Made by a program: the position numbers and the translations under genes | Source: a virus | Lineage: Duplodnaviria > Heunggongvirae > Uroviricota > Caudoviricetes | DNA: 31,573 nucleotides | IMG/VR virus record: IMGVR_UViG_2551306526_000005 | Direction: 5' to 3' (one strand) | Notes under the pieces: generated by a model | Seen by the model: only the letters and a program-made list of their open reading frames with translations | Told to the model about the DNA's origin: nothing | Database searches by the model: none | Part shown: positions 18,097 through 19,480 of the stretch, one piece after another | Layout of the letters: each line of letters starts with the position of its first letter | Numbering within the stretch: the stretch's first letter is position 1

Positions 18097-18726
18097 ATGA
18101 ACACTCTCGCAAATATTCAGGAACTCGCGCGCGCACTGCGCAACATGATTCGCACCGGCATTATCGTCGAAACCGACCTTAACGCCGGTCGCTGCCGCGT
18201 GCAGACCGGCGGCATGTGCACCGACTGGCTTCAGTGGCTGACCCATCGCGCAGGACGTTCGCGCACATGGTGGGCACCTTCCGTGGGGGAACAGGTGCTG
18301 ATTCTGGCCGTGGGTGGTGAACTCGACACGGCGTTCGTTCTGCCGGGGATTTATTCCGGCGATAACCCCTCGCCGTCTGTGTCGGCGGATGCCCTGCATA
18401 TCCGTTTCCCTGACGGGGCGGTGATTGAATATGAACCCGAAACCAGTGCACTCACGGTAAGCGGAATTAAAACGGCCAGCGTGACGGCTTCTGATTCTGT
18501 TACTGCCACGGTGCCGGTGGTCATGGTGAAAGCATCAACCCGCGTCACCCTGGACACCCCGGAGGTGGTCTGCACCAACAGGCTGATTACCGGCACGCTG
18601 GAAGTGCAGAAGGGCGGGACGATGCGCGGCAACATTGAACACACCGGCGGTGAACTCTCATCAAACGGTAAGGTACCCGGAAGATCAGCAGGAGGCGGTC
18701 GCCCGTACCCTGACACTGGAATCTGA
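18097..18726 (+). CDS. V: Baseplate spike protein (P2 gpV-like), C-terminal about 16 aa replaced
   Basis: Start at MNTLANIQ; convincing protein through ...ELSSNGKV, then the frame runs into J sequence read out of frame (PGRSAGGGRPYPDTGI). Confidence 0.8.
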   Translation: MNTLANIQELARALRNMIRTGIIVETDLNAGRCRVQTGGMCTDWLQWLTHRAGRSRTWWAPSVGEQVLILAVGGELDTAFVLPGIYSGDNPSPSVSADALHIRFPDGAVIEYEPETSALTVSGIKTASVTASDSVTATVPVVMVKASTRVTLDTPEVVCTNRLITGTLEVQKGGTMRGNIEHTGGELSSNGKVPGRSAGGGRPYPDTGI

Positions 18727-19480
18727 GCCTCTCGTCAAACTGCTGGAAGAAAATGCTTATCGTGAGCTTATCTGGCGTCAGCGTGTGAATGAGGCCGCAC
18801 GGGCGGTGATGCTGGCCTGTGCCGCCGGTAATGACCTTGATGTGATTGGTGCCAATTACAACACCACGCGCCTGACTATCACCCCGGCAGATGATTCGAC
18901 CATTCCGCCGACACCGGCAGTGATGGAATCTGACACCGATTATCGTCTGCGTATTCAGCAGGCTTTTGAGGGCTTAAGCGTCGCCGGGTCAGTGGGAGCC
19001 TATCAGTATCATGGTCGCAGTGCTGACGGGCGTGTCGCGGATATTTCTGTCACCAGTCCGTCTCCTGCCTGTGTCACCATCTCTGTGCTGTCACGTGAAA
19101 ATAACGGCGTCGCATCCGAAGACCTGCTGGCTGTGGTGCGTAACGCCCTTAATGGCGAGGACGTCAGGCCGGTGGCCGACCGCGTGACCGTGCAGTCTGC
19201 CGCCATCGTTGAATACCAGATAAACGCCACGCTTTACCTTTACCCTGGTCCCGAAAGCGAACCCATCCGCGCGGCCGCAGTAAAAAAACTGGAAGCGTAT
19301 ATCACGGCACAGCACCGGCTGGGGCGCGACATCCGTCTGTCTGCCATTTATGCCGCTTTGCATGTGGAAGGCGTGCAGCGTGTCGAACTGACTGCACCAC
19401 TGGCTGACATCGTGCTCAACAGTACGCAGGCGTCTTTCTGTACCGAATACCGCGTCGTGACCGGAGGCTCGGATGAGTGA
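18635..19480 (+). CDS. J: Baseplate assembly protein (P2 gpJ-like), apparently 5'-truncated, TTG-initiated ORF
   Basis: 281-aa ORF from TTG; upstream in-frame sequence is V read out of frame; about 34 N-terminal residues missing relative to recalled 302-aa P2 J. Confidence 0.7.
   Translation: MNTPAVNSHQTVRYPEDQQEAVARTLTLESEPLVKLLEENAYRELIWRQRVNEAARAVMLACAAGNDLDVIGANYNTTRLTITPADDSTIPPTPAVMESDTDYRLRIQQAFEGLSVAGSVGAYQYHGRSADGRVADISVTSPSPACVTISVLSRENNGVASEDLLAVVRNALNGEDVRPVADRVTVQSAAIVEYQINATLYLYPGPESEPIRAAAVKKLEAYITAQHRLGRDIRLSAIYAALHVEGVQRVELTAPLADIVLNSTQASFCTEYRVVTGGSDE

Follow-up and report, generated by a model that had tools for sequence, protein, structure and literature searches.

The 31,573-bp stretch of DNA analysed here, referred to throughout as the window, is a P2-like prophage of the O78:H9 ST23 lineage of E. 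coli, and in all likelihood it has been inactivated in two steps, first by a deletion in its lysis region and later by a second-hit deletion that runs from gene V through W into J and would preclude the formation of tails. The two deletions, the order in which they arose, their inheritance and the integrity of all of the other genes can be read directly from the genomes compared below, and nothing in the sequence contradicts an explanation by these two events. This is recent and ordinary prophage decay, and the prophage is appropriately described as recently inactivated.

The window begins with an integrase gene adjoining pflA and ends with ogr adjoining pflB; a recognisable temperate-phage genome with its integrase at one edge thus occupies an attachment site at which an intact sibling prophage is also found. 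There are only two differences from the corresponding region of E. coli APEC O78 (NC_020163.1, 1706449-1738021), one a substitution and the other a poly-G length difference, and the window is 100% identical to chi7122 (HE962388.1) over the 16.4 kb compared; chi7122 and APEC O78 are both O78:H9 ST23 avian-pathogenic E. coli (PMC4313913). Among complete genomes, E. coli NWU_3 (NZ_CP123009.1), an unrelated strain, has the nearest intact relative, a prophage that lies at the same pflA-pflB site and encodes mostly identical proteins. Over the ~14.8 kb from position 16752 to 31573 the two differ by a single substitution and a 509-bp gap. The remaining substitutions cluster in three patches, at 5738-6102 (the 3′ end of A), 8785-9973 (the portal gene) and 15330-16751 (lysA-lysB-lysC-R), a patchiness that indicates mosaic recombination among P2-like prophages.

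The 509-bp deletion was mapped by ungapped comparison with P2 (NC_001895.1), whose late operon, V-W-J-I-H-G, has the same gene order and P_V promoter region as the window. The match with P2 runs to window position 18676 (P2 10887) and restarts at window position 18674 (P2 11394), with 509 bp absent; the flanks are 98.4% identical in DNA sequence, and collinearity with P2 extends over V residues 1-193 and J residues 35-302. The junction itself, at 18674..18676, is a 3-bp microhomology, TAC, common to the V and J sides, within which the boundaries slide by 3 bp, so that the missing P2 nucleotides are approximately 10888-11396. Lost with them are V codons 194-211, the whole of W (115 codons) and J codons 1-34; P2 retains the V apex, W and J residues 1-34, whereas the window is without all of them. 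The same 509 bp are absent relative to the sibling prophages of NWU_3, which is intact, and of GCA_052514885.1. We propose that in a descendant already dead an illegitimate deletion between two TAC trinucleotides would have placed J codon 35 directly behind V codon 193, out of frame. A sequence-only reading of this DNA had described V as normal to about residue 193 and then continuing through 16 residues of wrong-frame J sequence, W as missing between V and an out-of-frame J, and J as startable only from a TTG in the overlap and about 34 N-terminal residues short. Alignment of P2 V, W and J to the region, in which J lies in the +1 frame relative to V, agrees with this description in every element.

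W could not be found between the two remnants or anywhere else in the prophage. A tblastn search with P2 W against the whole 31.6-kb window gave no significant match (the best had E = 0.017 at 23% identity, in an unrelated open reading frame), and W of the intact sibling, searched along with all other genes of that prophage, also has no match in the window; the prophage has no gp25-like open reading frame, whether at the V-J boundary or at any other place, which disposes of a displaced W homologue as an objection to the earlier description. We also considered whether W is encoded by a second, closely related P2-like copy in the APEC O78 chromosome, and reject this: the 12-kb late region matches only one place in that chromosome, so there is no closely related helper copy able to supply W or J. 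The P2 baseplate is built of V, W, J and I, and W is the homologue of gp25 and starts sheath polymerisation; J is the homologue of gp6, the N-terminal part of which contacts gp25 (PMC4604203).

The remnant of the gp6/TssF-like baseplate wedge gene J, here J′, occupies 18674..19480 on the plus strand and comprises codons 35-302 and the stop codon, in the +1 frame relative to the truncated V. By tblastn, homology to J starts at residue 35 of 302, and residues 35-302 are 99.6% identical to P2 J; the Baseplate_J family (PF04865, E = 1.4e-23) is recognised, and the middle and C-terminal domains are present. What the remnant is missing is its complete N-terminus with a native start codon and ribosome-binding site: in the vicinity of the junction or upstream of it, the frame offers just a TTG at 18635 and a GTG at 18650 as starts, and no Shine-Dalgarno sequence precedes either of these or any later candidate. 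RefSeq labels J′ as a pseudogene, 'incomplete; missing N-terminus'. With W lost and J deprived of its start and N-terminus, assembly of the baseplate and hence of the tail should be blocked, and we infer that no tails can be made.

The truncated central-spike gene, V*, lies at 18097..18726 on the plus strand and consists of 193 native codons (18097-18675), ending in ELSSNGKV, followed by 16 out-of-frame codons and a stop. Its product is 209 aa long, compared with 211 aa for P2 V, and its residues 1-193 differ from P2 gpV by one change, G133D. The last 16 residues (PGRSAGGGRPYPDTGI) are J DNA read in the wrong frame, and they stand, unrelated in sequence, in place of V residues 194-211 (LHTHKHPGDSGGTTGSPL). 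Both the N-terminal OB-fold domain (PF04717, E = 3.5e-20) and the trimeric beta-helical spike (PF18715, E = 4.3e-28) of gpV are recognised in V*. Structures of P2 gpV have been solved (3QR8, 3QR7 and 3AQJ), and the apex domain corresponds to residues 191-211, in which His197 and His199 cage an iron ion (bioRxiv 10.1101/2023.02.25.529910); V* is without this HxH iron cage. By itself the loss of the apex is probably tolerated or mild in its effects, judging by the engineered phage P2 vir1 gpV-DEL, whose spike ends at Thr196 and which assembles and plates like wild type in the laboratory (Miller et al., bioRxiv 10.1101/2023.02.25.529910). The spike of gpV-DEL (PDB 8VOL-like chain, residues 97-196) is cut just past the beta-helix at residue 196, and V* at residue 193; gpV-DEL keeps W and J, whereas V* has 16 added residues that are not native to it and the window has neither W nor the J N-terminus.

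Because V* and J′ overlap, with J′ in the +1 frame, one might suppose that a programmed +1 ribosomal frameshift in the overlap at 18677-18726 produces a functional fusion of spike and wedge that replaces W. This is exceedingly improbable. The layout is the product of a recent deletion that struck separate V, W and J genes, its sequence has stayed the same ever since, only one clone has it, and it is present in no infectious phage record; moreover, W is missing, and J is without the N-terminal region whose gp6 counterpart contacts gp25. We prefer the simpler reading of two broken genes left by a deletion. Downstream, the baseplate wedge gene I (19473..20003, plus strand) is intact and 100% identical to that of the intact sibling, and I, H and G would remain intact behind an intact P_V promoter. 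The binding site for the activator Ogr at P_V (18028..18055, plus strand; position transferred from the P2 annotation) differs from P2 at two positions and from NWU_3 at none. As neither the activator site nor the promoter differs from the intact sibling, production of Ogr probably still leads to transcription of V*, I, H and G.

The junction is a real, inherited and lineage-specific allele. The alternative, that the 509 bp are really present and were dropped by the assembler, might draw on the fact that a 46-mer spanning the junction occurs in just one (APEC O78) of the 5,426 complete E. coli genomes. We regard this as almost certainly wrong, since the identical junction is found in the independently sequenced chi7122 and APEC O78, as well as in other GCA and Logan assemblies: the exact 209-aa V* is encoded on 17 contigs that include chi7122, APEC O78, GCA_052496795.1, GCA_030392675.1, GCA_024733625.1 and at least four Logan read-set assemblies. 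The flanks have only 3 bp in common, leaving no repeat for an assembler to collapse, and the presence of one junction in two strains sequenced by different groups and in short-read assemblies excludes an artefact of assembly. Each side of the 46-mer is shorter than the 28-base search word, so intact phages cannot match it, and none of 50,697 phage records does; the possibility that infectious phages have the same V-J arrangement, on which the earlier description might have failed, thus finds no instance among those records. Nor is the pattern a product of chance: all 25 of the P2-like phage records listed align as two pieces spanning W, and 74 of 79 matching phage records cover at least 80% of the query.

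In ~1,490 of these 5,426 genomes the two flanks are near enough to each other to be joined, and the P2 spacing of 809 bp is seen in 39 of the 40 that were listed. The sole V-J spacing anomaly among these 40 is in E. coli WCHEC040047 (NZ_CP043295.1), an unrelated P2-like prophage in which a short deletion has likewise put W out of action and the adjoining baseplate genes survive. This deletion removes 273 bp within W and leaves MTAR*, and V and J are full length. The lesion is at 1707-1781 of the extracted region of the record, in which W is unannotated. We considered it as a second and unrelated case of the same breakpoint and rejected it, its endpoints being inside W and unlike those in the window.

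The other lesion in the window is a 1,013-bp deletion whose junction, at 15282..15283, carries a 2-bp microhomology (AA). It takes the last eight codons of L along with tail gene X, holin gene Y and endolysin gene K. The head-completion gene that remains, L* (14802..15464, plus strand), is truncated after codon 161 of 169 and reads on out of frame to give a 220-aa product; as a marker of the lysis deletion it turns up on 18 contigs. We searched all 43 annotated genes of the NWU_3 prophage, counting E/E′ as one gene, against the window. NWU_3 retains V (211 aa), W (115 aa), J (302 aa), L, X, Y and K; apart from its own SIR2 cargo gene, only X, Y, K and W are unmatched in the window, and truncation is limited to L (161 of 169 residues left), V (193 of 211) and J (35-302). 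The other 36 genes, among them those for capsid, terminase, sheath, tube, tape measure and fibres, run their full length without interruption and are 93-100% identical to NWU_3.

Four genes (X, Y, K and W) are gone and three (L, V and J) are cut short; genes essential for the virion or for lysis have thus been lost, and the earlier suggestion that the prophage is defective or cryptic is well founded. In the annotation made by the RefSeq pipeline, L and J already stand as incomplete pseudogenes. The element is not an R-type tailocin, for which a complete tail and baseplate module and a lysis cassette would be expected without head genes: the window has only part of a baseplate and no holin or endolysin gene, and it still carries all of the capsid, portal and terminase genes. 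Defective or cryptic P2-like prophages (PMC13586616) and 'grounded' prophages (PMC6379469) have likewise lost or pseudogenised core genes with the genes of the variable loci intact, but compared with those elements decay in the window is at a very early stage, with two deletions and no substitutions.

The order of the two events can be followed through the contigs encoding L* and further contigs found through LysB, among which there are three deletion states, all with the 1,013-bp lysis deletion. In the first (GCA_052514885.1; SRR30348745, two samples), a sibling at the same pflA-pflB attachment site, V (211 aa), W (115 aa) and J (302 aa) are intact, and the 15,920 bp compared are identical to the window. 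The second is the type found in the window, with both the lysis and the V-W-J deletions. The third (GCA_013047465.1 and SRR8112698, perhaps two assemblies of a single isolate) combines the lysis deletion with deletions of window positions 16169-18457 and 18676-22290; a 218-bp island of V is left, and most of lysC, R, S, an orf30-like cargo gene, most of V, W, J, I, H and the start of G have been lost. The occurrence of an undeleted V-W-J region together with the lysis deletion, at zero substitutions from the window, places the lysis deletion first and, by this comparison, makes the V-W-J deletion a second hit in a prophage that would already have been non-viable, and of which other descendants decayed along different lines. 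In principle the undeleted state could reflect repair by recombination with a related phage and not the ancestor, although this is less parsimonious. We propose that a P2-like prophage would have resided between pflA and pflB in the chi7122/APEC O78 lineage, and that an illegitimate 1,013-bp deletion of the end of L, X, Y and K would have been its first inactivation, with the V-W-J deletion following. As the virion genes would no longer have been under selection, we infer the second deletion to have been selectively neutral. The three states, on otherwise identical sequence and with the lysis genes lost before the tail genes, provide a clean, dated case of stepwise prophage decay. Given the loss of lysis and tail functions that we deduce, the prophage at pflA-pflB in chi7122 and APEC O78 should be left out of any count of active phages or of helpers for P4-like satellites. 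Beyond correct annotation the importance of this is small, and the defect is already flagged as pseudogenes in RefSeq.

The prophage also carries cargo at two loci that correspond to known variable hotspots of P2, loci that carry defence genes in P2-like phages (PMC9122126). At 6098-8640, between replication gene A and portal gene Q, there are genes for a DUF3850/ASCH/DUF7415 protein, a short open reading frame and two proteins of 257 and 260 aa; NWU_3 has a SIR2 gene at this hotspot where the window has the DUF3850 gene and two genes of unknown function. At 23016-24710, between G and FI, there are three small genes, encoding proteins of 92 aa, 59 aa (a DUF3606 protein) and 230 aa, all identical to those of NWU_3. 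A further cargo gene, orf30-like and encoding 261 aa, lies between S and V (17228..18013, minus strand), and is intact in the window and deleted in the third state. A Pfam search of the cargo identified DUF3850/ASCH/DUF7415 in one protein only, the 257- and 260-aa proteins had no Pfam or PADLOC match, and none of the seven cargo proteins submitted to PADLOC matched a known defence model.

The sequence-only reading had gone on to take cargo preserved intact beside broken phage genes as an argument for selection on that cargo, in a prophage either domesticated or cryptic. Here it does not hold up. The 36 other genes, structural ones included, are equally full length, there are no substitutions in 15.9 kb relative to the precursor without the V-W-J deletion and one in ~14.8 kb relative to the intact prophage of NWU_3, and the orf30-like gene has been lost in the third state. 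With zero substitutions since the precursor, neutral decay has had no time to make selected genes distinguishable from unselected ones, and because no divergence has accumulated the conservation of the cargo carries no information. In a domesticated element one would look for cargo that is kept while the phage genes decay, with measurable divergence, dN/dS < 1 and long vertical inheritance; what we find instead is recent inactivation, and the claim that the locus adds evidence for selection on cargo is unsupported. A caution applies generally, in that intact cargo next to broken phage genes is not evidence of selection where no divergence has accumulated.

A related proposal is that the V-W-J deletion was itself selected because the host gained from it, for instance through an end to wasteful or toxic assembly of tails or to exploitation of the prophage as a helper by a P4-like satellite, with the prophage retained for its cargo. 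We note that two separate late-gene deletions have been fixed in a successful pathogenic lineage, that defective P2-like elements can keep conserved defence genes (PMC13586616), and that the cargo is at known P2 variable hotspots (PMC9122126), at one of which NWU_3 has SIR2. Even so we consider adaptive inactivation very unlikely, since host killing and virion release were already abolished by the lysis deletion and no additional benefit is obvious, all of the other late genes are intact, the absence of substitutions since the precursor leaves no signal of differential conservation, a cargo gene has been lost in the sister variant, and PADLOC matched none of the seven cargo proteins to a defence model. 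Neutral loss from a prophage already dead is the reading we favor.

As to mechanism, the endpoints of the 509-bp deletion share only the 3-bp TAC, and no inverted or longer direct repeats were found there. Folding of the single-stranded DNA at the left endpoint is unremarkable (z = -0.59), and we reject repeats or secondary structure as the cause of the endpoints. To judge from this microhomology, the loss looks to be a typical illegitimate, microhomology-mediated deletion. The new V-J junction creates a GGTACC site.

The left breakpoint recurs in the third state, in which V at 18671-18675 is joined to G at 22291 (…AACGGTAAGGTA|ATCCAAAA) with the microhomology GGTA. Two deletions of the same clonal prophage therefore begin at 18671-18676, one of 509 bp ending in J and the other of 3.6-4.1 kb ending in G, and the left breakpoint of the larger (18671-18675) overlaps that of the smaller (18673-18676), the two being within 3 nt of each other. 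By a rough estimate such coincidence is unlikely to be due to chance, at about 1 in 1,000 for endpoints distributed over several kb, and it suggests that the breakpoint is not random, unlike the expectation from a model of purely random neutral deletion. The 46-mer spanning the V-G junction is absent from complete genomes, where the partial matches are to alleles of the G gene only. We attempted to order the third state relative to the second by shared SNPs, and this is ruled out by their 100% identity over ~19 kb, within which the sole variable site is a hypervariable poly-G tract. The third state could have been derived from the second by a deletion starting at the old junction, or alternatively a local hotspot could be responsible for both.

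The second of these possibilities would make V codon 193/194 prone to recurrent breakage or to template switching in replication, a local mutational mechanism and not random loss, and the coincidence of the V-to-G breakpoint in GCA_013047465.1 and SRR8112698 with that of the 509-bp deletion is the observation that speaks for it. We nonetheless judge it doubtful: there are no inverted or long direct repeats at the endpoints, the folding of the DNA is unremarkable, the larger variant may simply descend from the 509-bp variant, and its two assemblies may be the same isolate. The endpoints of the WCHEC040047 W deletion also differ, so that any such hotspot is not general. With correspondingly low confidence we put forward 18671-18676 (AACGGTAAGGTAC) as a recurrent deletion endpoint, through a site-specific break, a hotspot of replication stalling and template switching, or secondary processing of the new junction. 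The shared breakpoint is the only point here that might repay a larger survey.

Two further features of the late region deserve mention. The tail-fibre gene H (20014-22260) contains a tandem repeat at 20532-21003, with 3.6 copies of a 132-bp (44 aa) unit at 85% identity, owing to which the protein is 748 aa long compared with 669 aa in P2; the H protein of the intact NWU_3 prophage is identical to that of the window. Downstream of G, the poly-G tract at 22990-22999 lies within the stem of a terminator-like hairpin (AAAGGGGGGGGGGTACCCACCCCCTTT), and its length varies from G8 to G11 among otherwise identical prophages; the tract may be hypermutable or prone to sequencing error.
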